DNA of 64,000 nt from a phage. Each line of letters starts with the position of its first letter. Positions within the stretch are counted from its first letter, which is position 1. Location of the stretch: the sequence record PZ445554.1. One strand, 5' to 3'. Positions 2,653 to 33,571 of the stretch are shown piece after piece. The position numbers and the translations under genes are program-made. A model generated the notes under the pieces. The model saw only the letters and a list, made by a program, of their open reading frames with translations, was not told the DNA's origin and ran no database searches.

Positions 2653-4277
<1,625 letters not shown>

Positions 4278-4517: not shown

Positions 4518-4942
4518 TGCTTCTGATCCCTGAAACTCATGAATTAGTTCTCGAGAATGTCGAAGCACTTATTCCTGAAGCACAGGGTCGCTTTGACGAA
4601 TTGTCTTCTGCTTTAAATAAAGACGATATAAATACAATTGTCGAGAATATGCTTGATGATGAAACTGATTTAGCGGTTGCATTAGCTTCTATTAATGAAA
4701 ATATGCCGTTAAATGAATTCATCGTTAAACATGTTTCCGCCCGTGGTGAAATTACTCGTACTAAAGACCGCAAAACGCGTGAACGTAATGCATTTCAAAC
4801 CACTGGGCTGTCTAAAGCAAAACGTAGACAAATTGCTCGTAAAGCTACCAAAACGAAGATTGCCAATCCAGCAGGTCAATCTCGTGCTCAGCGTAAGCGT
4901 AAAAAAGCTCTTAAACGCCGTAAAGCATTAGGATTAAGCTAA
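4517..4942 (+). CDS. 68: prohead core protein gp68
   Basis: 141-aa ORF, ATGA-type coupling with neighbours; T4 synteny. Confidence 0.85.
4627..4634 (+). promoter_or_regulatory. candidate late promoter TATAAATA inside gene 68
   Basis: exact TATAAATA within coding sequence upstream of gene 21. Confidence 0.4.
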
Positions 4943-5580
4943 TGAATGAACCCCAATTACTAATTGAAACTTGGGGTCAACCTGGCGAAATTATTGATGG
5001 CGTACCAATGCTTGAATCTCATGATGGAAAAGACTTAGGTTTAAAACCGGGTTTATACATCGAAGGAATATTCATGCAAGCGGAAGTCGTCAATAGAAAT
5101 AAACGTCTTTATCCAAAACGTATATTAGAAAAAGCGGTAAAAGACTATATTAATGAGCAAGTTTTAACTAAACAAGCTCTCGGAGAATTAAATCATCCTC
5201 CACGCGCTAATGTTGACCCGATGCAAGCCGCTATCATTATAGAAGATATGTGGTGGAAAGGAAATGACGTATACGGACGAGCTCGTGTTATTGAAGGTGA
5301 CCATGGTCCTGGAGATAAATTAGCAGCTAATATTCGTGCCGGATGGATTCCAGGAGTTTCTTCTCGTGGATTAGGTTCATTGACTGACACAAATAAAGGT
5401 TATCGTATCGTAAACGAAGGATTCAAATTAACTGTAGGTGTTGATGCAGTATGGGGTCCAAGTGCTCCAGATGCATGGGTAACTCCTAAGGAAATTACCG
5501 AATCACAGACGGCGGAAGCCGATACAAGTGCCGATGACGCCTATATGGCTCTCGCAGAGGCCATGAAAAAAGCGTTATAA
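4942..5580 (+). CDS. 21: prohead core scaffold protein and protease gp21
   Basis: 212-aa ORF recognised as T4 gp21 prohead protease. Confidence 0.93.
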   Translation: MNEPQLLIETWGQPGEIIDGVPMLESHDGKDLGLKPGLYIEGIFMQAEVVNRNKRLYPKRILEKAVKDYINEQVLTKQALGELNHPPRANVDPMQAAIIIEDMWWKGNDVYGRARVIEGDHGPGDKLAANIRAGWIPGVSSRGLGSLTDTNKGYRIVNEGFKLTVGVDAVWGPSAPDAWVTPKEITESQTAEADTSADDAYMALAEAMKKAL

Positions 5581-5583
5581 ATA
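5576..5583 (+). promoter_or_regulatory. late promoter TATAAATA (gene 22)
   Basis: exact TATAAATA overlapping gene 21 stop, 28 nt before gene 22 ATG. Confidence 0.65.
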
Positions 5584-5610
5584 TTATTATCTAAACAACA
5601 GGACTACAAA

Positions 5611-6420
5611 ATGCTTAAAGAACAACTGATTGCCGAAGCGCAGAAAATTGATGCTTCCGTTGCTCTTGATAGTATTTTCGAATCAGTTAATATTTCTCCG
5701 GAAGCAAAAGAAACTTTCGGCACTGTATTCGAAGCTACCGTCAAGCAGCACGCCGTTAAATTAGCTGAATCTCATATCGCTAAAATTGCTGAAAAAGCAG
5801 AAGAAGAAGTAGAAAAAAATAAAGAAGAAGCCGAAGAAAAAGCTGAGAAGAAAATCGCTGAGCAAGCTTCTAAATTCATTGACCATCTTGCGAAAGAATG
5901 GCTCGCTGAAAATAAATTAGCAGTTGATAAAGGCATCAAAGCCGAACTGTTTGAATCCATGCTTGGTGGATTAAAAGAGCTCTTTGTTGAACACAACGTT
6001 GTTGTTCCAGAAGAATCAGTTGATGTTGTAGCTGAAATGGAAGAAGAGCTGCAAGAACATAAAGAAGAATCAGCTCGTCTGTTCGAAGAACTCAATATGC
6101 GCGACGCATATATCAATTATGTGCAGCGTGAAGTGGCATTGAGCGAAAGTACTAAAGATCTGACTGAGTCTCAAAAAGAAAAAGTCTCTGCTCTGGTCGA
6201 AGGTATGGATTATTCAGATGCATTCTCAAGTAAATTGAGTGCAATCGTAGAAATGGTGAAGAAATCTAATAAAGATGAAAGCACTATTACTGAGAGTATA
6301 AATACTCCTGATACTGAAGCAGCCGGACTGAATTTCGTCACTGAAGCTGTAGAAGATAAAGCTGCACAGGGTGCAGAAGATATTGTAAGTGTATATGCGA
6401 AAGTCGCATCTCGTTTCTAA
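5611..6420 (+). CDS. 22: prohead core scaffold protein gp22
   Basis: 269-aa acidic coiled-coil-like ORF; T4 synteny between 21 and 23. Confidence 0.9.
   Translation: MLKEQLIAEAQKIDASVALDSIFESVNISPEAKETFGTVFEATVKQHAVKLAESHIAKIAEKAEEEVEKNKEEAEEKAEKKIAEQASKFIDHLAKEWLAENKLAVDKGIKAELFESMLGGLKELFVEHNVVVPEESVDVVAEMEEELQEHKEESARLFEELNMRDAYINYVQREVALSESTKDLTESQKEKVSALVEGMDYSDAFSSKLSAIVEMVKKSNKDESTITESINTPDTEAAGLNFVTEAVEDKAAQGAEDIVSVYAKVASRF
6297..6304 (+). promoter_or_regulatory. late promoter TATAAATA (gene 23), inside 3' end of gene 22
   Basis: exact TATAAATA ~135 nt upstream of gene 23 ATG. Confidence 0.65.
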
Positions 6421-6438: not shown

Positions 6439-7998
6439 ATGACTATCAAAACTAAAGCTGAACTTTTGAACAAATGGAAGCCATTACTGGAAGGTGAAGG
6501 TTTACCGGAAATTGCTAATAGCAAACAAGCGATTATCGCTAAAATCTTTGAAAACCAGGAAAAAGATTTCCAGACAGCTCCGGAATATAAAGACGAAAAA
6601 ATTGCTCAGGCATTCGGTTCTTTCTTAACAGAAGCTGAAATCGGTGGTGACCACGGTTACAATGCTACTAACATCGCTGCAGGTCAGACTTCTGGCGCAG
6701 TAACTCAGATTGGCCCAGCTGTTATGGGTATGGTACGTCGTGCTATTCCTAACCTGATTGCTTTCGATATTTGTGGTGTTCAGCCGATGAACAGCCCGAC
6801 TGGCCAGGTATTCGCTCTGCGCGCAGTATATGGTAAAGACCCGGTCGCTTCCGGTGCTAAAGAAGCATTCCACCCAATGTATGGTCCAGATGCAATGTTC
6901 TCTGGTCAGGGTGCTGCTAAGAAATTCCCAGCTCTGGCTGCTAATACTACTACAGTTGTAGGTGACATCTATTCTCACTTCTTCCAGGAAACTGGCACTG
7001 TATATCTGCAAGCTTCTGCTGTCGTAACACTTGATTCTAGTGCGACTGATGCTGCTAAATTAGATGCCGAAGTTAAGAAACAAATGGAAGCTGGTGCACT
7101 TGTAGAAATCGCTGAAGGCATGGCAACTTCTATCGCTGAACTTCAGGAAGGTTTCAATGGTTCTACCGATAACCCATGGAATGAAATGGGCTTCCGTATC
7201 GATAAACAAGTTATCGAAGCTAAATCTCGCCAGCTGAAAGCTGCTTACTCTATCGAATTAGCACAAGACCTCCGCGCTGTTCACGGTATGGATGCTGATG
7301 CTGAACTGTCTGGTATTCTGGCTACAGAAATTATGCTGGAAATCAACCGTGAAGTTGTTGATTGGATTAACTACTCAGCTCAGGTTGGTAAATCTGGTAT
7401 GACCCTGACTCCGGGTTCTAAAGCTGGTGTATTTGACTTCCAGGACCCAATCGATATTCGTGGTGCTCGCTGGGCAGGTGAATCCTTTAAAGCTCTGTTG
7501 TTCCAGATTGACAAAGAAGCAGTTGAAATTGCTCGTCAGACCGGTCGTGGTGAAGGTAACTTCATTATCGCTTCCCGTAACGTAGTTAACGTTCTGGCTT
7601 CAGTTGATACCGGCATTTCTTATGCTGCACAGGGTCTGGCTACCGGCTTTAACACTGATACTACCAAGTCAGTATTTGCTGGTGTTCTGGGTGGTAAATA
7701 TCGCGTATATATCGATCAGTATGCTAAACAGGATTATTTCACTGTAGGTTATAAAGGTCCGAACGAAATGGATGCTGGTATTTACTATGCTCCATATGTA
7801 GCTCTGACTCCGCTGCGTGGTTCCGATCCGAAGAACTTCCAACCGGTAATGGGATTCAAAACTCGTTACGGTATCGGTATCAACCCATTTGCAGAATCCG
7901 CTGCTCAGGCTTCTCGCATCCAGAGCGGTATGCCTTCTATTCTGAATAGCCTCGGTAAAAACGCTTACTTCCGCCGTGTATATGTTAAAGGTATCTAA
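6439..7998 (+). CDS. 23: major capsid protein gp23
   Basis: 519-aa ORF, N-terminus MTIKTKAELLNKWKPLLEGEG recognised as T4 gp23 precursor; strong UUCG-loop terminator follows. Confidence 0.97.
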   Translation: MTIKTKAELLNKWKPLLEGEGLPEIANSKQAIIAKIFENQEKDFQTAPEYKDEKIAQAFGSFLTEAEIGGDHGYNATNIAAGQTSGAVTQIGPAVMGMVRRAIPNLIAFDICGVQPMNSPTGQVFALRAVYGKDPVASGAKEAFHPMYGPDAMFSGQGAAKKFPALAANTTTVVGDIYSHFFQETGTVYLQASAVVTLDSSATDAAKLDAEVKKQMEAGALVEIAEGMATSIAELQEGFNGSTDNPWNEMGFRIDKQVIEAKSRQLKAAYSIELAQDLRAVHGMDADAELSGILATEIMLEINREVVDWINYSAQVGKSGMTLTPGSKAGVFDFQDPIDIRGARWAGESFKALLFQIDKEAVEIARQTGRGEGNFIIASRNVVNVLASVDTGISYAAQGLATGFNTDTTKSVFAGVLGGKYRVYIDQYAKQDYFTVGYKGPNEMDAGIYYAPYVALTPLRGSDPKNFQPVMGFKTRYGIGINPFAESAAQASRIQSGMPSILNSLGKNAYFRRVYVKGI

Positions 7999-8011
7999 TC
8001 TTTGACGATTT

Positions 8012-8031
8012 AAGGGACCTTCGGGTCCCTT
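8012..8031 (+). terminator. rho-independent terminator after gene 23
   Basis: AAGGGACC-UUCG-GGUCCCUU hairpin followed by U-rich tract. Confidence 0.85.
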
Positions 8032-8046
8032 TAGTTGTTTTTATGG

Positions 8047-8054
8047 TATAAATA
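8047..8054 (+). promoter_or_regulatory. late promoter TATAAATA (gene 24)
   Basis: exact TATAAATA 28 nt before ATG. Confidence 0.75.
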
Positions 8055-8081
8055 AATCATATAAACCAAAAGGAAAGCGCA

Positions 8082-9365
8082 ATGGCTAAAATCAACGAAC
8101 TTCTGCGCGAATCAACCACAACGAATAGCAACTCAATCGGTCGCCCAAATCTCGTTGCTTTGACTCGCGCTACCACTAAATTAATATATTCTGACATTGT
8201 AGCAACGCAAAGAACTAATCAACCTGTTGCTGCTTTTTATGGTATCAAATACCTTAACCCAGACAATGAATTTACATTTAAAACTGGTGCTACTTACGCT
8301 GGCGAAGCCGGATATGTAGACCGAGAACAAATCACAGAATTAACAGAAGAGTCTAAATTAACTCTCAATAAAGGCGATTTATTCAAATATAATAATATCG
8401 TTTATAAAGTATTAGAAGATACTCCATTTGCTGATATTGAAGAAAGCGACTTAGAGCTAGCTCTTCAAATTGCAATCGTTCTTTTAAAGGTTCGTCTATT
8501 TTCTGACGCAGCGTCAACAAGCAAATTTGAAAGCTCTGATAGCGAAATTGCGGATGCTAGATTCCAGATTAATAAATGGCAAACCGCGGTTAAATCTCGT
8601 AAACTTAAAACTGGCATCACAGTTGAATTAGCGCAAGATTTAGAAGCAAATGGATTCGATGCTCCTAATTTCTTGGAAGATTTGCTTGCAACTGAAATGG
8701 CAGATGAAATCAATAAAGATATTCTGCAGTCTTTGATTACAGTGTCAAAACGCTATAAAGTTACAGGAATTACTGATAGTGGATTCATCGATTTGAGTTA
8801 TGCATCTGCACCTGAAGCGGGTCGTTCATTATACCGAATGGTATGTGAAATGGTTTCGCATATCCAAAAAGAATCAACTTATACAGCAACGTTCTGTGTT
8901 GCTTCAGCTCGTGCCGCTGCGATTCTTGCTGCTTCAGGTTGGTTAAAACATAAACCAGAAGATGACAAATATCTTTCACAAAATGCCTATGGGTTCTTAG
9001 CTAATGGTTTACCGCTTTATTGCGATACTAACAGCCCATTAGATTATGTAATCGTTGGCGTAGTAGAAAATATCGGTGAAAAAGAAATTGTTGGGTCAAT
9101 TTTCTATGCTCCGTATACAGAAGGTCTCGACTTAGATGACCCCGAACATGTAGGTGCATTTAAAGTTGTTGTTGATCCAGAAAGCTTACAACCATCTATC
9201 GGTTTATTAGTTAGATATGCTTTATCAGCAAATCCTTATACCGTAGCAAAAGATGAAAAAGAAGCAAGAGTAATTGATGGTGGAGACATGGATAAAATGG
9301 CGGGTCGTTCAGATTTGTCTGTTTTATTAGGTGTTAAGCTACCAAAAATTATCATTGATGAATAA
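8082..9365 (+). CDS. 24: capsid vertex protein gp24
   Basis: 427-aa ORF, gp23 paralog; TATAAATA upstream. Confidence 0.95.
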   Translation: MAKINELLRESTTTNSNSIGRPNLVALTRATTKLIYSDIVATQRTNQPVAAFYGIKYLNPDNEFTFKTGATYAGEAGYVDREQITELTEESKLTLNKGDLFKYNNIVYKVLEDTPFADIEESDLELALQIAIVLLKVRLFSDAASTSKFESSDSEIADARFQINKWQTAVKSRKLKTGITVELAQDLEANGFDAPNFLEDLLATEMADEINKDILQSLITVSKRYKVTGITDSGFIDLSYASAPEAGRSLYRMVCEMVSHIQKESTYTATFCVASARAAAILAASGWLKHKPEDDKYLSQNAYGFLANGLPLYCDTNSPLDYVIVGVVENIGEKEIVGSIFYAPYTEGLDLDDPEHVGAFKVVVDPESLQPSIGLLVRYALSANPYTVAKDEKEARVIDGGDMDKMAGRSDLSVLLGVKLPKIIIDE

Positions 9366-23526: not shown

Positions 23527-23556
23527 ACTATAACACAACACGAGTGACTTGTAAAC
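23527..23556 (-). promoter_or_regulatory. early promoter (alt.-3)
   Basis: minus strand GTTTACAAGTCACTCGTGTTGTGTTATAGT: -35 TTTACA, 17-bp spacer, TGn-extended -10 TATAGT. Confidence 0.7.
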
Positions 23557-25613
23557 TACATCTTGAACTTTTTAGACATTCCGTTGATGTTAACCAAAGA
23601 AGCTAAGATTTGAGAAACTTCGTTTTCCTCTTCTTTTGATTCTTCTACAAGGAATTGATTAAATCCAGCCATTGGACGAACTTCACCAGTTTCCATCAAA
23701 TGATCGCCATCATATACTGATTCTTCTAATTGCTCAGAAGGAGGAACGATTGTACCTTCGATTAGATACTTGTTATAAGCAGTTTCTTTCATAAAGTAAG
23801 TACTTACTTTATTAATCTTCAGTAAAATTCCACGTGGTAGAATAACTTCAGCTTCTGATGGAAATCCTGATAAATGACCCGGAACGATAACTTTGATTCG
23901 CTCAGCTCCTTTAATTACCATACCCACGCTAGTTTCTGCATCTTCATTAGCATATGTAGAATGACTACCCATATGCATCAAATCTTCTGCATCAACGGAA
24001 CCTTCTCCTTCACCAGAAAATACTGCGCCGGAATCATCTAGAGCCATATAGTTTTTACCATGCTCACCGAAGATATTTGGTTTAAGCGATGTGGATACGA
24101 AGTTCTTGAAATAGAACATTTTGTTTTCAATGTTATGACGCAAAGTTTTAAATGTAACTTCTTGTCCACGGTAAAGTGTAGTTCCTGGAGGAAGAACTGA
24201 ACCTTTAGCGAATGCAGAATCAAGCGTCTCGATGTGCTTAATAGCACGTTCCATATATTCTTCACGAGTAGAATCAGGTTTACCTAAAAGGAACGAGTTC
24301 ATTTCAACATATGAATCTGCGCAATAATCTTCAATTACATCAGATTCAGCCTGAGTCAGTCCTTTTGGAGTTACTTCGGTGCTTGCGTATTCATATGCCT
24401 GAGCGGCAGATTCATTAATCAATTTATAAATGCCATTCATGACAAATTGAATAATAGCTGTCTTTTCATCTGGCGTAGCTTTAGAACCTTTAACTAAATC
24501 ATTAATAATTTTCTTAATAACATCAAAGCTATTAGAAATATTAATGTCAGCAAGATCGCTTAAAATTTTATCAGTTTTATAATCAAAGAATTCTTTATTC
24601 TTTAAATATTCTTGAGAACCTTGATATGTTATATCGCTCTGCAACTTGATAGATGGATCACGTAAACGCGCATGGGCTAATGCAATATGATTTCGGAAGT
24701 TTTCTAGTTCATAATCGCTAGATTTAAAACGAGAAGCACTTCTCATACCACCGATAGCTCCTTTGCTAAAGTTTGAACCAATCTGAATAACGCCAGAGTT
24801 CATCGGACCTTCTGCTTTATATACCGGAACTTTAGATTCAAACTCTTGATATTTCTTAGCAGCGAAGCTATCACCCTGAAGTGAAGCATCGACAGTAGAG
24901 TATTGAGCTTGTGCTGCTAATCGACGACTAATTTTAGTTTTCTGAATAACAGCTTGATCCGTGCGCTTATCATTTTCTAAGGCAATAGAAGCAGCAACAG
25001 CAACAGCTTTAGGAACAGCATTACCTGTTTTAACGTCTACATAAACATCACCAATCTTTGATTCAACTTTTGTGAATAACTCAGTTGAAATAGGAGGTAC
25101 ACCTGGAATGTCTTCTAATTTGGCATTTTTACGGTAAACCATAATATATGCGTACTTTTTATCATAATCCCAGATTTCCTTTAAAAGAACATATCGACCT
25201 GCTCCTTTAGTACGTACTAAACGGTCAGCAATAACTTGCATTTGACGAGCAGCGCCATTTGTTTTACTTTTTAGTACGCGGAATAGGCATGCGTCGATTT
25301 TATACTGTTTCATTGTTTGAAGAGCAGTATCAAAAACAGCATTAATGACGCCAATTGGATTTCCACCCAAGTTTCTAAGCTTGACTAACGATAATTTCTC
25401 GTTGACACCTATCATTACGATATGCATCATTTTATCGCCTGGCTTAACGTTTTTATTCGTATCACCGCCAGAGGTGTATGTACAAAATCTAAATCCAGGA
25501 AGCACGCTTTCTTCACCGGCTTGAATAGCAAAAATTTGTGGTATTTTATGCTTAGGATTTAAGTTAACAACCGGCGCCGAAGCGCCGTCAAATAATTCTG
25601 TAATAAGTTCCAT
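23556..25613 (-). CDS. Alt-like ADP-ribosyltransferase paralog
   Basis: 685-aa ORF, 3 nt downstream of alt; shares N-terminal block (MELITELFD, CTYTSGGDTN, KYAY) and ART core motifs (TLYRGQ, NFVSTSL, EAEVILPRG) with alt; AAGGA SD. Confidence 0.85.
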   Translation of the reverse strand: MELITELFDGASAPVVNLNPKHKIPQIFAIQAGEESVLPGFRFCTYTSGGDTNKNVKPGDKMMHIVMIGVNEKLSLVKLRNLGGNPIGVINAVFDTALQTMKQYKIDACLFRVLKSKTNGAARQMQVIADRLVRTKGAGRYVLLKEIWDYDKKYAYIMVYRKNAKLEDIPGVPPISTELFTKVESKIGDVYVDVKTGNAVPKAVAVAASIALENDKRTDQAVIQKTKISRRLAAQAQYSTVDASLQGDSFAAKKYQEFESKVPVYKAEGPMNSGVIQIGSNFSKGAIGGMRSASRFKSSDYELENFRNHIALAHARLRDPSIKLQSDITYQGSQEYLKNKEFFDYKTDKILSDLADINISNSFDVIKKIINDLVKGSKATPDEKTAIIQFVMNGIYKLINESAAQAYEYASTEVTPKGLTQAESDVIEDYCADSYVEMNSFLLGKPDSTREEYMERAIKHIETLDSAFAKGSVLPPGTTLYRGQEVTFKTLRHNIENKMFYFKNFVSTSLKPNIFGEHGKNYMALDDSGAVFSGEGEGSVDAEDLMHMGSHSTYANEDAETSVGMVIKGAERIKVIVPGHLSGFPSEAEVILPRGILLKINKVSTYFMKETAYNKYLIEGTIVPPSEQLEESVYDGDHLMETGEVRPMAGFNQFLVEESKEEENEVSQILASLVNINGMSKKFKM

Positions 25614-25616
25614 GAT

Positions 25617-27674
25617 TTATCCTTGAACGAACTTGTAAGGCATGTTTGCAATATCTATGCAAGACGCAATAATTCCAAGAGATGATTCTACTTTCTGTTT
25701 AACATTTGATGAAACAAATGATGCAAAGTCAACTCTGTCTTCTATTTCAATATCACCTGTCATTGTAACCAATTCACCAGTTTCCATTAAATGGTCACCG
25801 TCATAAATTACCGATTCGGTGAGTTCTTCTGTGGTCATAACTTCAGCTTGAATAAGCTTGTTGTTAGTTTTAACTGTTCCATCATTGTAAGATGCATCGG
25901 TTATTTTATTAACTTTGACCATTAATCCACGTGGCAAAATGACTTCCATTTCATTTGAAGGCGCTAAACTTCCACCGGGTAAAACAACATTGACCTTATC
26001 AGCCCCAGTAATAACCCATCCAATTCCAACTAAATTATCGCTAGAATTTACTAGTCCTTCATCAGTTTTATCAATAGAAACGCTTAGACGCTTTTCGTCT
26101 GGTAAAACACCTATAGATGAATCAGTCATCCAAGTACCAAAAATATTTGGATATAATGATGTTGACACAAAGTTTCTAAAATAAAAAACTCGATTTTTTA
26201 CCATTGCTTCGTATATTGAAGGTAACATTCGTTGTGAACGATACAAAGTAATACCTTTTGGTAATCGTTCACCATTTTTAAAGGCTGAATCTAAATTATC
26301 AATAGCTTTTTCTATGTCAGATGCTGTCAAAATACTTGTACGCTCATCTGGATTATATAATCCCAAAAGAGCATTATTTATGTCTACATATCCTGAACCT
26401 ACGTATTCACGAATTCCGCGTTTTTGTGCTGGTGTGTATTTAGATGAATCTTTATTTTCGACTATAGGATGTAATGACCATCCAGCGGTAAGAGCATATC
26501 CACGTAATTCTCTTCGAATAATCTTTGTTTTTATTGCATTCCAAGAATTTTGTACTAACTCATTTGCAGCATCTTGGTTTAAATGCGAATGTTTGTTAAT
26601 ATTTCTTTCAAACCAAGCACCTTTATATTTTTCTAAAGTATCATCGACGATAGAAGCAATAGTTTCTAAGGTTTTTATTGAAGTAATAGATTCTTTTCGT
26701 AATTTTTCTAAAGCTTTATTTTTTATTTCTGCATTAATAATGAATTCTTTATCTTCAGGAATTATAGAAGCTTCTCTGAATGCCATCCCAGCTGTAACAC
26801 TGCTAAGAGCATTCTCTAGTGCAAATCCTGAAGTAGAAATTACCGTTAATTCATTAGAATCAGAAATTAAAGGAGCGTCCGCTGGTTTATTTAATTCTGC
26901 CGCTGAAGCCTCAAATTTTTGAAACATCGGTGTTTCAAATCTAGAAGATTCCAATGATTGACTTTGCGCAATTGCTCTACGTGAAATTTTAACTTTAACG
27001 ATTACAGCTTGATCAGAACGTTTATCATTTTCTTGCGCAATAGATGCTGCAATTGCCTCATTTTTAGTTACTTGGGCTCCAGTATCTTTATTGATATAAA
27101 CATCACCGACCTTCGATTCAACTTTAGTAAAGAGCTCAGTACTAATTTCCGGAACTCCCGGAATGTCTTCTAGTGATACATTTTTGCGATGTATAAGAAT
27201 ATATGCATACTTTTTATCGTAATCCCATAGTTCCTTAAGAAGGACGTATCTGCCACCTGAACGACTACGGATAAGTCTATCAGCAATAACTTGAATTTGT
27301 CGAGCTTGACCAGCGGTTTTAGACTTAAGAATACGAAGCATACAGGCATCAATTTTATACTGACGCATTGTTTGCATCGCAACAGTAAAAACTGAATTGA
27401 TATAATTAATTGGGCTTGGACCAAGACCTTTTAATTTAGCAATTGAACCTTTAGCAGTTAATGTAAAAGGAACAATATGCATCATTTTATCGCCCATCTT
27501 TAAATCACGATTAGTATCACCTCCAGATGTATAGGTACATAAACGAAAGCCTGGTTGTTCAATTGCATCATCAACATGAACTGAAAAAATTTGTGGTATT
27601 TTCTTCTTTGGATTTAAGTTTGTAATCGGAAGAGTAGTATCTTCGTCAAATAATTCTGTAATGAGTTCCATCAT
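25617..27674 (-). CDS. alt: Alt ADP-ribosyltransferase (head-packaged)
   Basis: 685-aa ORF with R / S-T-S / E-x-E ART motifs (TLYRSQ, NFVSTSL, EMEVILPRG); minus-strand late promoter upstream; true start may be the second ATG (27671). Confidence 0.92.
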   Translation of the reverse strand: MMELITELFDEDTTLPITNLNPKKKIPQIFSVHVDDAIEQPGFRLCTYTSGGDTNRDLKMGDKMMHIVPFTLTAKGSIAKLKGLGPSPINYINSVFTVAMQTMRQYKIDACMLRILKSKTAGQARQIQVIADRLIRSRSGGRYVLLKELWDYDKKYAYILIHRKNVSLEDIPGVPEISTELFTKVESKVGDVYINKDTGAQVTKNEAIAASIAQENDKRSDQAVIVKVKISRRAIAQSQSLESSRFETPMFQKFEASAAELNKPADAPLISDSNELTVISTSGFALENALSSVTAGMAFREASIIPEDKEFIINAEIKNKALEKLRKESITSIKTLETIASIVDDTLEKYKGAWFERNINKHSHLNQDAANELVQNSWNAIKTKIIRRELRGYALTAGWSLHPIVENKDSSKYTPAQKRGIREYVGSGYVDINNALLGLYNPDERTSILTASDIEKAIDNLDSAFKNGERLPKGITLYRSQRMLPSIYEAMVKNRVFYFRNFVSTSLYPNIFGTWMTDSSIGVLPDEKRLSVSIDKTDEGLVNSSDNLVGIGWVITGADKVNVVLPGGSLAPSNEMEVILPRGLMVKVNKITDASYNDGTVKTNNKLIQAEVMTTEELTESVIYDGDHLMETGELVTMTGDIEIEDRVDFASFVSSNVKQKVESSLGIIASCIDIANMPYKFVQG

Positions 27675-27725: not shown

Positions 27726-27912
27726 AATAATCTATAGGTAAGAGAGTACGATATATTTCAAACTTTGGACCTTTTTCATAAGCATCAAAAGTTTCTGTGA
27801 ATTTATTATAAGCATATGCATCGATAAATTCAATCATGATTTGTGATACAGAAGTAGAAACATCTCCACCTTCTTTTTGAGCCACGACAATTGTTTCTAA
27901 GTAAGCTTTCAT
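27724..27912 (-). CDS. hypothetical small protein between gene 30 and alt
   Basis: 62-aa ORF, ATG start overlapping gene 30 stop (ATGA). Confidence 0.6.
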   Translation of the reverse strand: MKAYLETIVVAQKEGGDVSTSVSQIMIEFIDAYAYNKFTETFDAYEKGPKFEIYRTLLPIDY

Positions 27913-29372
27913 AGACCAGTTACCTCATGAAAATCACCAAATACATCCTCGAATGTATTAGCTTTAGTTTTATCTTCACGTAAACGAATCGCAATCGGAA
28001 GAAATAATTTAACATAATCAGTGCGGCCATCAGATTTTAACCAACCGTTGCATTCGCACTCTAGAATTTTTCCAATATAATAATTTTGGTTTTCCATAAT
28101 GCGAGTACGGTCAAGTTCATGCGATTTTACACCGGCTTTATCTTTTAAGCCTGAACCAGCATTTACTTTAATTTTTCCACACTCTGACTCAAGAATAAAT
28201 CCACCTGCTTTAGTAGGGTCTTTACGGTGAGGATAAATTCCTACAATTTTTAAATCAACATCAATTACTTCTTTAAATTTATAGAGATTTTTTGAACGAG
28301 CATTTTCCCATAATCCATCGATATTTTTGAGAATAATACCTTCAAGACCTTGGTCAATATACTTTTTATAAATTACCTTAGCTTCATCTAGGTTATTTAC
28401 TACCTGGTTTTCAATTAAAATTACTTTATCATATCCAGATGTCATTTGTTCTAGTTTAGAAAAACGTACATCATACTTCAAACGAAATGCAGGAAGACCG
28501 TATATTTCTACCAACGGGACATAATCCCAGACCTGAAACTTCATGCATTGTGCTTCTTTTTCAGAAATGGTTCCCTTTAAAGATTTATTGGCGATTCCAT
28601 TAGAAGCAGTACGTGATTCAGCTACTTCGGCGAATTCTTTAGCTTTACTAATTTCAGGATAAGCATCAAAAAGAAAATCTAGGCCTTCTGGCTCCTTTTT
28701 AACTTGCTCATGGTATACCAATTCGCCATCAATTAACACACCTTCTGGATGAATCTGGCGGGCTTCAGCGGTCATTTTGATTAACTCTTCCTTAAGAAGA
28801 TCTAATCCTAGATATTCATTACCGGCTCGTGATAAAAGACGAACATCATCTAATTCATCACCTCTGACTTCAGCAAAGCACCGAGCTCCATCAGCCTTTA
28901 ACTGTGCAAAAGCTGGAAATTTGATATTCTTATTAATGCCTTTTTCATCATAAGAACTTGCCAGCATTTGAGGTTGTTCAGGAATTAAACCTGGCCAAAC
29001 TTTATTTGCAATAGATACTGATGCACCGCATTCAAGGTCTCGCATCATCACCCGACGCAAAACTTCAACATCATCTTTTTTACCGTCAGTAATATATCCA
29101 GTTAATTCCTCAATTGCCGCATTTCCAGTCAATTTCCGAGTAGCTAACGTGAATTCAATGAAGTCAAGCATATCGGTAAGAGTCAACATTCCAAAACTCT
29201 GGGTAGCAATACCAGGTTTAGGCCATTTCTTGATATAATACTGTAACCCACGAGAATAAGTCAGACGATATACCCGTTTAAGCAATTCATTATCTTTATT
29301 CTTTTCAAGAATTGCTTGCTTTTGTTTAGTTGAACCAATAGATGCTATTTCATTCAGAATTTTAAGAATCAT
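27909..29372 (-). CDS. 30: ATP-dependent DNA ligase gp30
   Basis: 487-aa ORF with adenylation motif KADGAR; N-terminus MILKILNEIASIGSTKQK recognised as T4 DNA ligase. Confidence 0.97.
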   Translation of the reverse strand: MILKILNEIASIGSTKQKQAILEKNKDNELLKRVYRLTYSRGLQYYIKKWPKPGIATQSFGMLTLTDMLDFIEFTLATRKLTGNAAIEELTGYITDGKKDDVEVLRRVMMRDLECGASVSIANKVWPGLIPEQPQMLASSYDEKGINKNIKFPAFAQLKADGARCFAEVRGDELDDVRLLSRAGNEYLGLDLLKEELIKMTAEARQIHPEGVLIDGELVYHEQVKKEPEGLDFLFDAYPEISKAKEFAEVAESRTASNGIANKSLKGTISEKEAQCMKFQVWDYVPLVEIYGLPAFRLKYDVRFSKLEQMTSGYDKVILIENQVVNNLDEAKVIYKKYIDQGLEGIILKNIDGLWENARSKNLYKFKEVIDVDLKIVGIYPHRKDPTKAGGFILESECGKIKVNAGSGLKDKAGVKSHELDRTRIMENQNYYIGKILECECNGWLKSDGRTDYVKLFLPIAIRLREDKTKANTFEDVFGDFHEVTGL

Positions 29373-29638
29373 TGTTCATCCTTCAGAGTTTGATTTACAG
29401 CTCTATTATAAATCAATTCATCATTAAGCTCAGTCAAAGACCTATGATATGTGGTTCTAACTTTATTTCCTTGCATCCAGTGCTTGACGTAAATGAAACC
29501 TTGCTCTACACATTTTTTAAAAATTCGTTCGTCTTTTTGAGCTCGGAATTCTGGATTGCATCTAAAAAATTGATTTACGTGACCGTAATCACGCGTAGTA
29601 TTACCTTCATTTTCATAAATAGTGTGAACAACAAACAT
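29369..29638 (-). CDS. hypothetical protein (30.1 position)
   Basis: 89-aa ORF, ATGA coupling. Confidence 0.7.
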   Translation of the reverse strand: MFVVHTIYENEGNTTRDYGHVNQFFRCNPEFRAQKDERIFKKCVEQGFIYVKHWMQGNKVRTTYHRSLTELNDELIYNRAVNQTLKDEQ

Positions 29639-30492
29639 TAGAATGCTCCTTGAAAAATATTATCACCACTACCACTAGTAAGTCTATTAAAATACCCTGC
29701 ATCGCCAGGCTTAATATAACTCCACGTATGGAATGGATGCATCTGGTGTGAGTGTGTATAATATGGATGATATGGATTATAAGGATTAAATCCAGGAGTT
29801 CTCCAGGTAGTGTTCCAGCGAAAAGAATCGTTTTTAATCATCTTCTCAATTACATCTTTTATAGCTTTTTCACTATCAAAACTTTCTTTATTTTCCTTCA
29901 ATGGAAAAAGCTTATTCTCTACATCATTCCATGTATAAACTCGCTGGGCAGTTTTTGGAATACTGTCACGCTCCCCTCGAGCCATCCAATAAACAGGCAC
30001 ATTTAATATTTCACTTGCGTGATCGCAATGGTGAGCGAGATCGTCAATATAACAAATTACGTTATATTTCTCTTTTGCCTTTTTGAACAACTCTTCTTTT
30101 GAAGAATCATGACTACACATCAGTACTTCTGAGAAGGCACCAGGAAAAAGAGCATTCAAATTAAATTGACGATTCAACAGAGCGTCAATAGAATCACCCA
30201 GTGCTGTAACAGCTACAAAATTATAATCTTCTTTTAATTTGTTAATTACACACAGAGCATCTTTATATGGAGACAAGTAACGAATAAAATCCGAACGATT
30301 GTATTTTTCAATTAACTTGACGCCAAGTTCTTCATCACAATTAAAAAGTTTACCTGGAGAAATAAATTTCTCATCTTGGATCATTTTTAAAATATGTTCC
30401 AACGGAAGGTTATATTTCTGGGCAAAATAAGGAAGGCCTGATTGCCAGCTTAAACATACTCCATCAATATCAGTTAAAATAGTAGGCTTCAT
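29638..30492 (-). CDS. HAD-superfamily hydrolase-like protein (30.2 position)
   Basis: 284-aa ORF; N-terminal DIDGV (HAD motif I), K...YIDD (motifs III/IV); aromatic/His/Pro-rich C-terminal tail. Confidence 0.7.
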   Translation of the reverse strand: MKPTILTDIDGVCLSWQSGLPYFAQKYNLPLEHILKMIQDEKFISPGKLFNCDEELGVKLIEKYNRSDFIRYLSPYKDALCVINKLKEDYNFVAVTALGDSIDALLNRQFNLNALFPGAFSEVLMCSHDSSKEELFKKAKEKYNVICYIDDLAHHCDHASEILNVPVYWMARGERDSIPKTAQRVYTWNDVENKLFPLKENKESFDSEKAIKDVIEKMIKNDSFRWNTTWRTPGFNPYNPYHPYYTHSHQMHPFHTWSYIKPGDAGYFNRLTSGSGDNIFQGAF

Positions 30493-30947
30493 AGAGAGTC
30501 TCTTAATAGGTTTAACACATCAATAAATTCAGCTTCGGTTAGTATTGTATCATCTTTTGTTAGACCACTAGCCATGCTGTGCTTCAAAACTTTTCCTTTC
30601 GAGGCTTGTAATGCATCGCGAAAGCCCCTATTTTGGATCGCTGCTTCAAAATATGCATTTGTGTATAATTCTTTCCACGCCGGGGAGTATCTTGAAAATG
30701 GAACTCCAAGCCAGAAGAGGGTCCCACGGTCCTGAGCTCTAGCATAAGACCTTCCAGCTTGTTGGGCGGCAAGCCCAGATAACCCAAATATACGACGTTG
30801 TTGTTCAACGTTTTTCACCTTGCATCCTTGGAGGAATCCTTCAAGACCTCCAAATTGAATACCATCCATAACGAAAGGCCAATGGGCGAAATTACTTAAT
30901 GCGCATGATGGCCACCTAAAATTGCTTCTAATCTCTAACTCAGACAT
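30489..30947 (-). CDS. NADAR (YbiA-like) domain protein (30.3 position)
   Basis: Track start is TTG; ATG at 30947 gives 152 aa. Motifs SNFAHWP..MDG and EGFLQGCK resemble NADAR/YbiA signature as I recall it. Confidence 0.6.
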   Translation of the reverse strand: MSELEIRSNFRWPSCALSNFAHWPFVMDGIQFGGLEGFLQGCKVKNVEQQRRIFGLSGLAAQQAGRSYARAQDRGTLFWLGVPFSRYSPAWKELYTNAYFEAAIQNRGFRDALQASKGKVLKHSMASGLTKDDTILTEAEFIDVLNLLRDSL

Positions 30948-31146
30948 TTTCAATGCTTATAATTTCAACATCAGCCCAATGACCATAGCAAGGAAGACGA
31001 AATTCAACTGGCCAGTTAGGGTCCTTTTCTAATATAATAGACTCAACTTGTGGTTCTTCGTGTTCATCAGTATACGGATTTTTATCTGTTACTTTATATG
31101 TGACCTTAATGTACTGAATTCCAAAAATCTTATTAATTATATTCAT
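30940..31146 (-). CDS. hypothetical protein (30.4 position)
   Basis: 68-aa ORF. Confidence 0.65.
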   Translation of the reverse strand: MNIINKIFGIQYIKVTYKVTDKNPYTDEHEEPQVESIILEKDPNWPVEFRLPCYGHWADVEIISIENV

Positions 31147-31340
31147 ACTAATTCCTTTAATCCGTAGATAGGAGATAATTCATCGCCCATATGAAGGTCT
31201 TCATTTCCATCTACCCAAGAAACAATATAAGCCTCTTTTACTTGAACATCTCCCAATTTAAATGCGGGTAAAACCTTAGAAATTAATCCAGGTATACCAA
31301 CTCCCTTTAATTCAACAGTTTGGCCTAAAAAGAATTTCAT
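31143..31340 (-). CDS. hypothetical protein (30.5 position)
   Basis: 65-aa ORF. Confidence 0.65.
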   Translation of the reverse strand: MKFFLGQTVELKGVGIPGLISKVLPAFKLGDVQVKEAYIVSWVDGNEDLHMGDELSPIYGLKELV

Positions 31341-31627
31341 TAGAACCTCATCTGAAAACCATGTGATTTAACATTACCGCCATTAATATCAGAACTATTA
31401 ATTTCACGTGCAATTGAGGGGTCAATGTCAATTTCGCCATTAAGTTTAATGATAGACAAAGTATCACGCCCATTTACTGTGCGGAACTCTAAAGGACAAA
31501 CCACATCAACGTAGTTTTTAATCGATTCACTGGTAGGCTGCAAATGAGCAGGAAGGTCTTTAGGCGCCTTTGAGAAAACTACTTCACAGAAGTTTTTACG
31601 AGTATCAAAATAAGTGGTCATAAACAT
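31340..31627 (-). CDS. hypothetical protein (30.6 position)
   Basis: Track start lies inside a hairpin; ATG at 31627 after GAGGAAA SD gives 95 aa. Confidence 0.65.
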   Translation of the reverse strand: MFMTTYFDTRKNFCEVVFSKAPKDLPAHLQPTSESIKNYVDVVCPLEFRTVNGRDTLSIIKLNGEIDIDPSIAREINSSDINGGNVKSHGFQMRF

Positions 31628-31643
31628 AGTATTTTCCTCAGTA

Positions 31644-31659
31644 AGGGGCCGAAGCCCCT
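31644..31659. other. GC hairpin between 30.7 and 30.6
   Basis: AGGGGC-CGAA-GCCCCU; U-run only on plus strand although flanking genes are minus. Confidence 0.5.
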
Positions 31660-31667
31660 GTTTTATT

Positions 31668-32033
31668 TTAAATATCAAATTCGTTAAGAACTACATCAAA
31701 GATTGCTTCAAGATGCTCAGGTTTAGCTCTGTTACTCAAAATATGACGAATCCAAGTTTTAACCAGAAGCTTACGATTGACGCCATTCCAGCAAGGATGA
31801 GTCCCTAAATCACGTTGACGAAAATCATCATCTAATGCGATTTTAAAAGAAGAACCTTCTTTCGTGATTGAAACCGTGATGCCATTTTCAAATCGCATAT
31901 AAACGTAGTTAGGAGTCATATACTGTTCAATTTCGCATACTGATCCATTTTGATGTTTCCAAAGGCAGATGGTATCAATAGAACCTGCAATACCATTAGA
32001 AACATATTTACGTTCAAAGTTAATGTAGTTCAT
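31668..32033 (-). CDS. hypothetical protein (30.7 position)
   Basis: Track start is TTG; ATG at 32033 after GGAG SD gives 121 aa; own early promoter. Confidence 0.65.
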   Translation of the reverse strand: MNYINFERKYVSNGIAGSIDTICLWKHQNGSVCEIEQYMTPNYVYMRFENGITVSITKEGSSFKIALDDDFRQRDLGTHPCWNGVNRKLLVKTWIRHILSNRAKPEHLEAIFDVVLNEFDI

Positions 32034-32068
32034 TTTATTCTCCAAGATGTTTAATTGCGGTACAGGTA

Positions 32069-32098
32069 TATAATATCATGTCCTGTACCAAAGTAAAC
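32069..32098 (-). promoter_or_regulatory. early promoter (30.7)
   Basis: minus strand GTTTACTTTGGTACAGGACATGATATTAT: -35 TTTACT, 16-bp spacer, TGn + TATTAT. Confidence 0.6.
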
Positions 32099-32100
32099 AA

Positions 32101-32433
32101 TTATTTTACTACTTTCCAATGCTGCATGTCAAGTTTACCAACTTTTTTCATCTTCTCAATTAAGCGTTCGGCGCGTTGGCGAGCTGTAACATAATACCAT
32201 TCACCTAATTCATTTTGTTCAATTTTTCCAACGATTACTGTATTCAATTCATAAATCCAACCAGTAAAGAAATTATGAACTTGAATTGTAAAGGTGAAAT
32301 CTGTTCCCATACCTTCTGTTGTTTCTACTTCAATAATATCACCTTCAACTGCCATTAAAAACCACATAGTTTCATTATATTTACCATTGAAGCATTTAGT
32401 TTTAACTGTAGCGTTCAGATTAATCGTTTTCAT
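32101..32433 (-). CDS. hypothetical protein (30.8 position)
   Basis: 110-aa ORF; AAGGAG SD; own early promoter. Confidence 0.7.
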   Translation of the reverse strand: MKTINLNATVKTKCFNGKYNETMWFLMAVEGDIIEVETTEGMGTDFTFTIQVHNFFTGWIYELNTVIVGKIEQNELGEWYYVTARQRAERLIEKMKKVGKLDMQHWKVVK

Positions 32434-32460
32434 TTTATTCTCCTTTGTTTGTGTAAGATA

Positions 32461-32490
32461 ATACTATCACAAAGGAACCGTACTGTAAAC
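32461..32490 (-). promoter_or_regulatory. early promoter (30.8)
   Basis: minus strand GTTTACAGTACGGTTCCTTTGTGATAGTAT: -35 TTTACA, 17 bp, TGn + TAGTAT. Confidence 0.6.
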
Positions 32491-32504
32491 AACTTTGTGC
32501 AATC

Positions 32505-32539
32505 TTTGGAAAATAAAAAAGGACTCCCGAAGGAGTCCT
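32505..32539 (-). terminator. rho-independent terminator downstream of 30.9
   Basis: AGGACUCC-CGAA-GGAGUCCU hairpin followed on minus strand by UUUUUUAUUUU. Confidence 0.8.
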
Positions 32540-32543
32540 CAAC

Positions 32544-32762
32544 TTATGCTTTCTGCTTACCAAAACGAGAAGCATCATCTCGAAGAACCGCACGTGCTCG
32601 ACGCATGATCTTCTCAACAGTTTGATTAATACGAGAGTTCGACCCACGCTTGTAGCCAGCGCGTTTAGAATCACCAACTTTCTTTTCAACTGCTTTCTTT
32701 GCTTTAGCTTGTTTTGCCATTATAAATTCTCTTTTAAATGAAAATGCAGGACTTATTGGCAT
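32544..32762 (-). CDS. hypothetical basic protein (30.9 position)
   Basis: 72-aa ORF (alternative ATG at 32720); rho-independent terminator downstream. Confidence 0.65.
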   Translation of the reverse strand: MPISPAFSFKREFIMAKQAKAKKAVEKKVGDSKRAGYKRGSNSRINQTVEKIMRRARAVLRDDASRFGKQKA

Positions 32763-32839
32763 TGCCTGCGCAAGCCCTCAAGGGGTACTTAGGTTTTGAA
32801 TATTTACCGACAGGATAACCATAAACCTCGTCAACATAA

Positions 32840-33088
32840 TTACTTCAGTGTTACCACAAAGTGACGAACTGCTTTTCGTGCAGCAGAAGCCAAAGGCTTA
32901 GCATATTTAAGCTCATCTTTTTCCTGGAGCTCAGCGGCTAATGCAGTTTGAGCAGGATTCAGATGTTTGAAATAACGCAGGATTTCAAGAGCTTCGGCTT
33001 CAACATCAATAGATGCGCCATAGTTTTCGTGACCATTATTCCATGCGTTTCGTTGCAGTTCAAGAGCGTGTTGTAATTGTTTAATCAT
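32840..33088 (-). CDS. rIII: RIII lysis-inhibition accessory protein
   Basis: 82-aa ORF at the T4 rIII position (between 30.9 and 31). Confidence 0.8.
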   Translation of the reverse strand: MIKQLQHALELQRNAWNNGHENYGASIDVEAEALEILRYFKHLNPAQTALAAELQEKDELKYAKPLASAARKAVRHFVVTLK

Positions 33089-33227
33089 TTAAAAATTCTC
33101 GTTAGAGATTAAAACTCGGTAGTCACGTTCTTCTGAATTTCATCTTCTTTCGACAGATCTCTCAGTTGTAGACTACCACATAGAATTGTTCGGTTAACTT
33201 ATTATTCCGACACCCAATTCATATTAT

Positions 33228-33235
33228 TATTTATA
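33228..33235 (-). promoter_or_regulatory. candidate late promoter TATAAATA upstream of rIII
   Basis: minus-strand TATAAATA just downstream of gene 31 stop, ~140 nt upstream of rIII ATG. Confidence 0.45.
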
Positions 33236-33571
33236 TCACTTATAAAGACACGGAATAGCTTTATAGTGACAGGTAACGAATTTTTGTTTAATTTCTTTTG
33301 GCTGCTTAAGACCCAGAGCTACAAAAGGATGCGGAACATTTCGAATTTGACCAACTGGAAGAGAAGTCAAATCACCAACTTCGCAGAAACCTTCAGGAAC
33401 ATCAGGACCGACAGAGTGAACTACACACAGTTCAGGAACTTCACCTTGAACACGTTTACCGATAATAAGTCCTGATTCTGTGACTTCTTCATCACCAGCT
33501 TGTGCAGGTTCAGAAACTAAAATAACATATTCACCGACAGCACGAATTGGTAGCTGTTGTACTTCAGACAT
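33236..33571 (-). CDS. 31: co-chaperonin gp31 (GroES analogue)
   Basis: 111-aa ORF recognised as T4 gp31. Confidence 0.93.

Follow-up and report, generated by a model that had tools for sequence, protein, structure and literature searches.

Results

We analyzed a stretch of 64,000 nucleotides of phage DNA (sequence record PZ445554.1), referred to here as the window. The window is a genome of T4-like type (Tequatrovirus): with 4 kb around gene 30.3, the gene of interest here, as query, 927 phage records matched, mainly of Escherichia Tequatrovirus phages, with a top identity of 97.4%. The local gene order, which runs alt, alt.1, 30 (ligase), 30.1, 30.2, 30.3, 30.4 and on to rIII, 31 and cd, is exactly that of the T4 annotation, and 30.3 has rIII and 31 upstream of it and ligase gene 30 and alt downstream, as in T4.

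The coding sequence of gene 30.3, or adfN, occupies 30489..30947 on the minus strand and consists of 152 codons and a TGA stop. The ORF list gives a minus-strand ORF at 30489..30953 that begins with TTG and would encode 154 amino acids. The ATG at 30947, two codons downstream of that TTG, yields the 152-aa product and agrees with the annotation of T4 gene 30.3 (459 nt). An earlier note on this DNA had placed a 152-aa ORF of the gene-30 cluster at 30489-30947, and the ORF list, the ATG and the T4 annotation bear this out. We annotate the product as a single-domain, phage-type NADAR ADP-ribosylglycohydrolase.

Gene 30.3 begins within the end of the upstream gene 30.4 (30940..31146 in the ORF list, minus strand; 99% identical to its T4 ortholog): the two share 8 nt, ATGTCTGA, at 30940..30947 on the minus strand, which hold the 30.3 start codon and the 30.4 stop codon. 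At the other end, ATGA at 30489..30492, again on the minus strand, combines the 30.3 stop codon TGA (30491..30489) with the ATG (30492..30490) that opens gene 30.2, the downstream gene (29638..30492, minus strand). Both overlaps are laid out alike in T4, and we infer that the one with 30.4 reflects co-transcription or translational coupling.

The downstream product, gp30.2 (284 aa), had no Pfam match. Its N-terminus, MKPTILTDIDGV, contains a HAD-phosphatase-like DxDG motif, and in one related phage record a feature of the 30.2 region is named "5' nucleotidase, deoxy pyrimidine cytosolic type". With 92% identity to its T4 ortholog, gp30.2 is clearly more diverged than its neighbors.

The DNA ligase gene 30 (PF01068) lies at 27909..29372. 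Two tandem genes for Alt-like proteins of 685 aa, each with a PF03496 ADP-ribosyltransferase domain, are found on the 30.3 strand at 25617..27674 and 23556..25613, 2.8-6.9 kb away from 30.3; the nearer is 2.8 kb off. This agrees with the earlier note, which had put two Alt ADP-ribosyltransferases (ARTs) within a few kb of the gene. The two proteins are 41% identical to each other. T4 Alt is 99% identical to the protein encoded at 25617..27674, while the first 116 residues of the one encoded at 23556..25613 match the small T4 ORFs alt.-1 and alt.-2 at 95-97%, from which T4 alt.-1 and alt.-2 seem to be what is left of a second alt gene, one that is whole in the window phage. T4 thus has one Alt and a remnant, whereas the window phage has two full-length Alt paralogs.

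We scanned 29300..33300 for promoters and terminators and found nothing particular to 30.3. There were 16 promoter-like sites against 13.7 ± 4.0 in shuffled sequence, which is no excess, and terminator-like sites were somewhat commoner than in shuffled sequence (5 against 2.1 ± 1.4). One strong terminator-like hairpin at 32519..32540 on the minus strand has a 9-bp stem with 5 GC pairs, a TTCG loop and a T-run. It sits in the 30.8/30.9 region, upstream of the string of 30.x genes, and may delimit transcription units of the early region.

The product is identical to T4 gp30.3 at 149 of 152 residues (98%) in a gap-free alignment, with the substitutions Q22H, K107R and I125M. All three fall at positions that vary in the family (alignment of 61 members), including Q22H, which adjoins the SNFA motif described below. 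At the nucleotide level, 13 of the 459 positions differ from T4, 10 of them synonymously and 3 non-synonymously. With this excess of synonymous changes, the 30.3 frame is under purifying selection and therefore belongs to a real gene, no chance ORF. Pfam assigned the product to PF08010 (Phage_30_3, "Bacteriophage protein GP30.3") with E=1.7e-69; the score of 232.4 bits exceeds the cutoff of 36, and the match extends over the whole profile (positions 1-138 of 138). The PHROGs match was to phrog_652 alone, listed as "unknown function". The ORF is the ortholog of T4 gene 30.3 (adfN), by sequence and by synteny.

An overlapping ORF annotated in T4 as 30.3' has a counterpart inside 30.3, at 30584..30808 on the minus strand (74 aa, TTG start, +1 frame). 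It is 89% identical to its T4 version, against 98% for 30.3. The span holds 7 nucleotide differences from T4, and all 7 are non-synonymous in the 30.3' frame; read in the 30.3 frame, 6 of them are synonymous. With 0 synonymous and 7 non-synonymous changes, 30.3' was ruled out as part of the feature; it shows no sign of protein-level constraint and is probably no true gene.

The earlier note had described the product as a NADAR (YbiA-like) domain protein and had expected a match to PF08719, the Pfam NADAR family. For the protein alone that match did not appear in the Pfam scan even at E<=1, PF08010 being found instead. The single sequence also had no match in NCBIfam, the 30.3 protein had none in PADLOC, and phmmer against the PDB returned 3RJZ alone, a chance match with E=0.58. 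The single-sequence searches gave no NADAR match, and the assignment therefore rests on profile and structure evidence.

A database search gave 94 homologs, all with PF08010 and 1 with PF08719 as well; several are named "YbiA (DUF1768 family)" by JGI. We aligned 61 full-length members, down to about 35% identity. Invariant in this alignment are P13, L17, S18, N19, F20, F25, E36, G37, F38, Q40, H123, T134, L136 and T137, and at least 90% of the 61 have K43. The family profile matched the YbiA sequence of PDB entry 2B3W with E=0.002, aligning SNFA..DG..E..FLQ..K with SNFAAWP..DG..E..FQAQK, and in hhalign the same profile aligned with YbiA of E. coli MG1655 over 91 columns (probability 94.4%, E=9.3e-8). 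When members were scanned singly, 8 of 60 matched PF08719, the best with E=1.5e-7 and 32.3 bits, just under the cutoff of 35.1. In the reciprocal direction, YbiA matched PF08010 at E=0.004.

We predicted the structure with AlphaFold2 from the family alignment, with the T4 row left out of the input. The model has a mean pLDDT of 93.4 and a pTM of 0.89, and it consists of a helical core with beta-hairpins at residues 25-32 and 76-85 and strands at 3-6 and 120-123, which is the NADAR fold of an alpha-helical core flanked by two small beta-sheets. The comparison with YbiA proposed in the earlier note came out in its favor, as YbiA (2B3W) was the top Foldseek match in the PDB (E=7.5e-5, TMq 0.67). 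The other credible matches were the Phytophthora nicotianae NADAR with ADP-ribose (8BAU, probability 1.00) and the DarG1 NADAR of Geobacter lovleyi (8BAT, probability 0.99). Beyond these three entries the next probability in the PDB search was 0.04, with none above 0.06.

The segments in which the earlier note had seen a NADAR signature, SNFAHWP, MDG and EGFLQGCK, are all in the sequence, at residues 18-24, 27-29 and 36-43. The N-terminal signature S18-N19-F20-A21-H22-W23-P24 is encoded at 30876..30896 on the minus strand; it follows the invariant L17, begins with the invariant S18, N19 and F20, and aligns with "SNFAAWP" of YbiA. MDG, read from the DNA, is M27-D-G29 on the same strand. The active-site helix E36-G-F-L-Q-G-C-K43 is encoded at 30819..30842 on the minus strand, with GAA for E36 at 30842..30840 and AAG for K43 at 30821..30819. 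The catalytic Glu and Lys of NADARs (E43 and K50 in PnNADAR; E88 and K95 in the E. coli C7 NADAR) are thus present as E36 and K43, which align with the E..Q..K motif of YbiA.

The last beta-strand of the model (E120-123) ends in H123, an invariant residue with the codon CAC at 30579..30581 on the minus strand. The residue of the last strand separates the NADAR clades, being His in phages, Glu in the YbiA family and Asp in the DarT1-associated BC4488/DarG1 proteins (PMC11125620; PMC11543638). Judged by its sequence, the predicted product belongs to the phage NADAR clade, as defined by H123. The C-terminal alpha-helix (residues 138-152, encoded at 30492..30536 on the minus strand; helix H138-151 in the model) is identical to that of T4. 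This helix is missing from the RB69 allele and intact in the window allele. By fold, profile and active-site residues together, the 30.3 product is a member of the NADAR superfamily.

We also looked at the surroundings of distant homologs (38-41% identity) in two lineages of large phage contigs, L002/L003 and L004/L005. Within ±10 kb there was no homolog of Alt (PF03496), of 30.2 or of 30.4 in either. In the two lineages sampled, ligase was the sole recurring neighbor, found in L004/L005; in L004 an ATP-dependent DNA ligase gene lies at 4690..6186, about 4 kb upstream of the 30.3 homolog, and its product is 28% identical to gp30 of the window. A loose linkage of ligase and 30.3 may be older than the linkage with alt, as far as gene order in these contigs indicates. 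In the L002 lineage, the 7 kb upstream of the 30.3 homolog include a gene resembling PRPP synthetase and one with a GGDEF domain (3060..4022 and 7819..8316).

Shortened or fused forms of the product occur in other phages. The 30.3 product of SV76 has 109 aa and is without E36 and K43, that of record P0013 ends after residue 82, and that of phage NR1 begins in the 30.3' frame and goes on in the 30.3 frame.

Discussion

Work published between 2012 and 2025 already describes this gene, the NADAR fold of its product, the hydrolase activity on guanine-ADP-ribose and the role against DarTG1. The classification of NADARs by de Souza and Aravind, as cited in two later papers (PMC11125620; PMC11543638), already includes phage gp30.3 proteins. 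Schuller et al. 2023 found that the ADP-ribose which DarT1 links to guanine is hydrolyzed by NADARs; they also determined the structures 8BAT and 8BAU and pointed out the His variant of phage NADARs (PMC11543638). T4 gp30.3 was then cloned by the Suskiewicz group (Toxins 2024); in vitro it takes G-ADPr, and not T-ADPr, off DNA, and it gave E. coli no protection against DarT1 (PMC11125620). According to a 2026 follow-up, cytidine-ADPr is not removed by the T4 NADAR either (PMC12945103), so that its reported activity is on guanine-ADPr in DNA and RNA only, with thymidine-ADPr and cytidine-ADPr untouched (PMC11125620; PMC12945103).

The genetics came from Johannesman et al., who crossed RB69 with T2 and T4, identified gene 30.3 as the source of the resistance that T-even phages show to DarTG1 (bioRxiv 2024, PMC11257639; Nat Commun 2025, PMC11825919) and renamed the gene adfN, for anti-DarT factor NADAR. 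Deletion of adfN from T2 or T4 costs about 10^4-fold in plating on DarTG1 hosts. The RB69 allele has a frameshift by which the last 15 aa are lost, which goes with DarTG1 sensitivity, and RB69 is rescued by ectopic AdfN. Purified AdfN takes ADP-ribose off DarT1-modified DNA and does not bind DarT1 (PMC11257639; PMC11825919 for all of these results). E36A, K43A and C-terminal truncation all impair T4 AdfN, with partial activity kept by the catalytic mutants (PMC11825919). Against DarT1, AdfN gives no protection to E. coli and very little to phages outside the T-even group; it is fully effective in T-even infections only (PMC11825919). DNA modification is not the reason, as T4-GT7, whose DNA is unmodified, remains dependent on adfN, and the authors propose a T-even factor (PMC11825919).

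We consider it very probable that the window gene is adfN in this functional sense: its NADAR N-glycosidase would clear phage DNA of the ADP-ribose that DarT1 attaches to guanine, and replication could then resume in DarTG1 hosts. Its product would be an early-expressed, minimal, core-only N-glycosidase of NADAR fold. The DarT1 toxin of the host's DarTG1 toxin-antitoxin defense would ADP-ribosylate guanines in replicating phage DNA, and AdfN would hydrolyze the guanine-ADP-ribose bond and restore replicable DNA, by which the phage would escape abortive infection. AdfN would act as an "orphan antitoxin" that, like bacterial DarG1, works on the modified DNA and not by binding the toxin.

The window phage and T4 share the neighborhood of the gene, the start and stop overlaps with 30.4 and 30.2, the catalytic residues and the C-terminal helix, and their alleles differ by the three substitutions Q22H, K107R and I125M. 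On the strength of 98% identity, and because the three substitutions are at variable positions, function can safely be transferred from the T4 allele, and the window allele should function as T4 AdfN does. The suggestion in the earlier note that the protein counters host ADP-ribosylating defense toxins is therefore published fact for a 98%-identical protein, T4 gp30.3/AdfN acting against DarTG1 (PMC11125620; PMC11825919). Its motif-based assignment was accurate and its inference correct, if already in the literature.

Comparison with other NADARs narrows down what kind of NADAR this is. E. coli YbiA (PF08719; 2B3W) has the motifs SNFAxWP...DG and E..(F/Y)xQxxK in common with the 30.3 product and also cleaves G-ADPr in vitro (PMC11125620). 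However, the two are only 18% identical, the last-strand residue is Glu in YbiA and H123 in the 30.3 product, and YbiA is a housekeeping N-glycosidase of riboflavin intermediates from a LexA-controlled operon (PMC11125620). The label "NADAR (YbiA-like)" given in the earlier note thus holds for the fold, the profiles and the residues E36, K43 and H123, but not for the YbiA subfamily: with His123 and not Glu, the 30.3 product is YbiA-like in fold and lies outside that subfamily in the sense of de Souza and Aravind.

The DarG1 antitoxins (BC4488 family, e.g. those of G. lovleyi, 8BAT, and E. coli C7) share the NADAR fold, as the Foldseek result for 8BAT indicates, and for the T4 protein they share published chemistry, namely hydrolysis of guanine-N2-ADP-ribose on DNA without toxin binding. 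DarG1 genes sit beside the DarT1 toxin gene, whereas the neighbors of 30.3 in the window are the orthologs of 30.2 and 30.4. DarG1 has an N-terminal beta1-beta2-alpha1 extension and an Asp in the last strand, whereas the 30.3 product has the core only (PMC12945103) and His123, and the T4 protein is no substitute for DarG1 in cells without infection. Having no DarT neighbor, no N-terminal extension and no last-strand Asp, the 30.3 product is no DarG1 antitoxin. The NADARs of Bas32 and Bas60 are, like AdfN, phage-encoded orphan NADARs that counter DarTG1 (PMC11257639). These belong to other clades, however, and they neutralize DarT1 outside infection and rescue unrelated phages, neither of which T4 AdfN does (PMC11257639).

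The nearness of the Alt genes raises another reading, in which the main job of the protein would be to undo or modulate modifications set by transferases of the phage itself (the pair of Alt paralogs, ModA/ModB), for example arginine-ADP-ribose on RNA polymerase or off-target modification of nucleic acids. The earlier note had offered such tuning as a possible role. The two PF03496 genes on the same strand, 2.8-6.9 kb off, would fit it, as would the report of Iyer et al. 2022 that T4-like phage NADARs are early genes expressed along with ARTs (PMC9503650). However, the T4 enzyme is reported to act on guanine-ADPr only, the deletion phenotype reported for adfN is specific to DarTG1, and no Alt or other ART homolog lies within ±10 kb in the two distant homolog lineages; tuning found no support here, and we think it very improbable as the main job. 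Alt is missing beside the distant homologs, so the adjacency looks like Tequatrovirus synteny and not like a conserved functional pairing. A conserved NADAR-ART pairing, with Alt adjacency as a functional signal, was dropped on the same count, Alt being missing in both distant lineages sampled. No more credit is due, in our view, to a main role in degrading soluble molecules, be they derivatives of ADP-ribose (immune signals, by-products of RNA repair) or intermediates of the riboflavin pathway. YbiA, an N-glycosidase, is the best structural match, Iyer et al. 2022 suggest a possible preference of phage NADARs for ADPr derivatives of low molecular weight (PMC9503650), and one distant homolog is near a PRPP-synthetase-like gene. 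Yet the glutamate that defines YbiA is replaced by His123, and direct biochemistry and genetics show that the T4 ortholog works on ADP-ribosylated DNA and account for the DarTG1 resistance. As a side activity, action on such small molecules may still occur.

Given that other phages have truncated or frame-fused 30.3 products (P0007, P0013, P0016, P0017) and that RB69 has a frameshift, one may ask whether the window allele could likewise be inactive or decaying. The chance of this is close to nil in our estimate, since the frame is full length and co-linear with T4, the catalytic residues and the C-terminal helix are all present, and 10 synonymous substitutions stand against 3 non-synonymous ones. 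A further reading concerns the restriction of AdfN to T-even infections. It is unlikely, although less so than the readings above, that AdfN needs a T-even partner or has a further substrate during infection; the candidates would be the translationally coupled neighbors gp30.2, with its HAD-like DxDG N-terminus, or gp30.4 as partner, and guanine ADP-ribosylation by the phage's own transferases as substrate. Homologs of 30.2 and 30.4 are absent beside the sampled distant 30.3 homologs, which argues against an obligatory partnership with these neighbors.

Removal of DarT1-installed ADP-ribose from phage DNA, the reading that we prefer, has practical consequences. Related phage records still list 30.3 as "hypothetical protein", and the label adfN can be applied to them. 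An intact adfN allele predicts DarTG1 resistance, and truncated or frameshifted alleles would predict sensitivity; if the truncated and fused 30.3 alleles are real, and not errors of sequencing or annotation, their phages are predicted to be DarTG1-sensitive, like RB69. The state of the adfN allele is thus relevant to the prediction of host range for therapeutic T4-like phages.

In reading the published work we came across one discrepancy of length. Methods section 4.2 of PMC11125620 lists the construct as "E. coli T4 phage NADAR (gp30.3; residues 1-208)", and T4 30.3 encodes 152 aa; "1-208" may be a typographical error, the length of a tagged protein, or the protein of a different phage.
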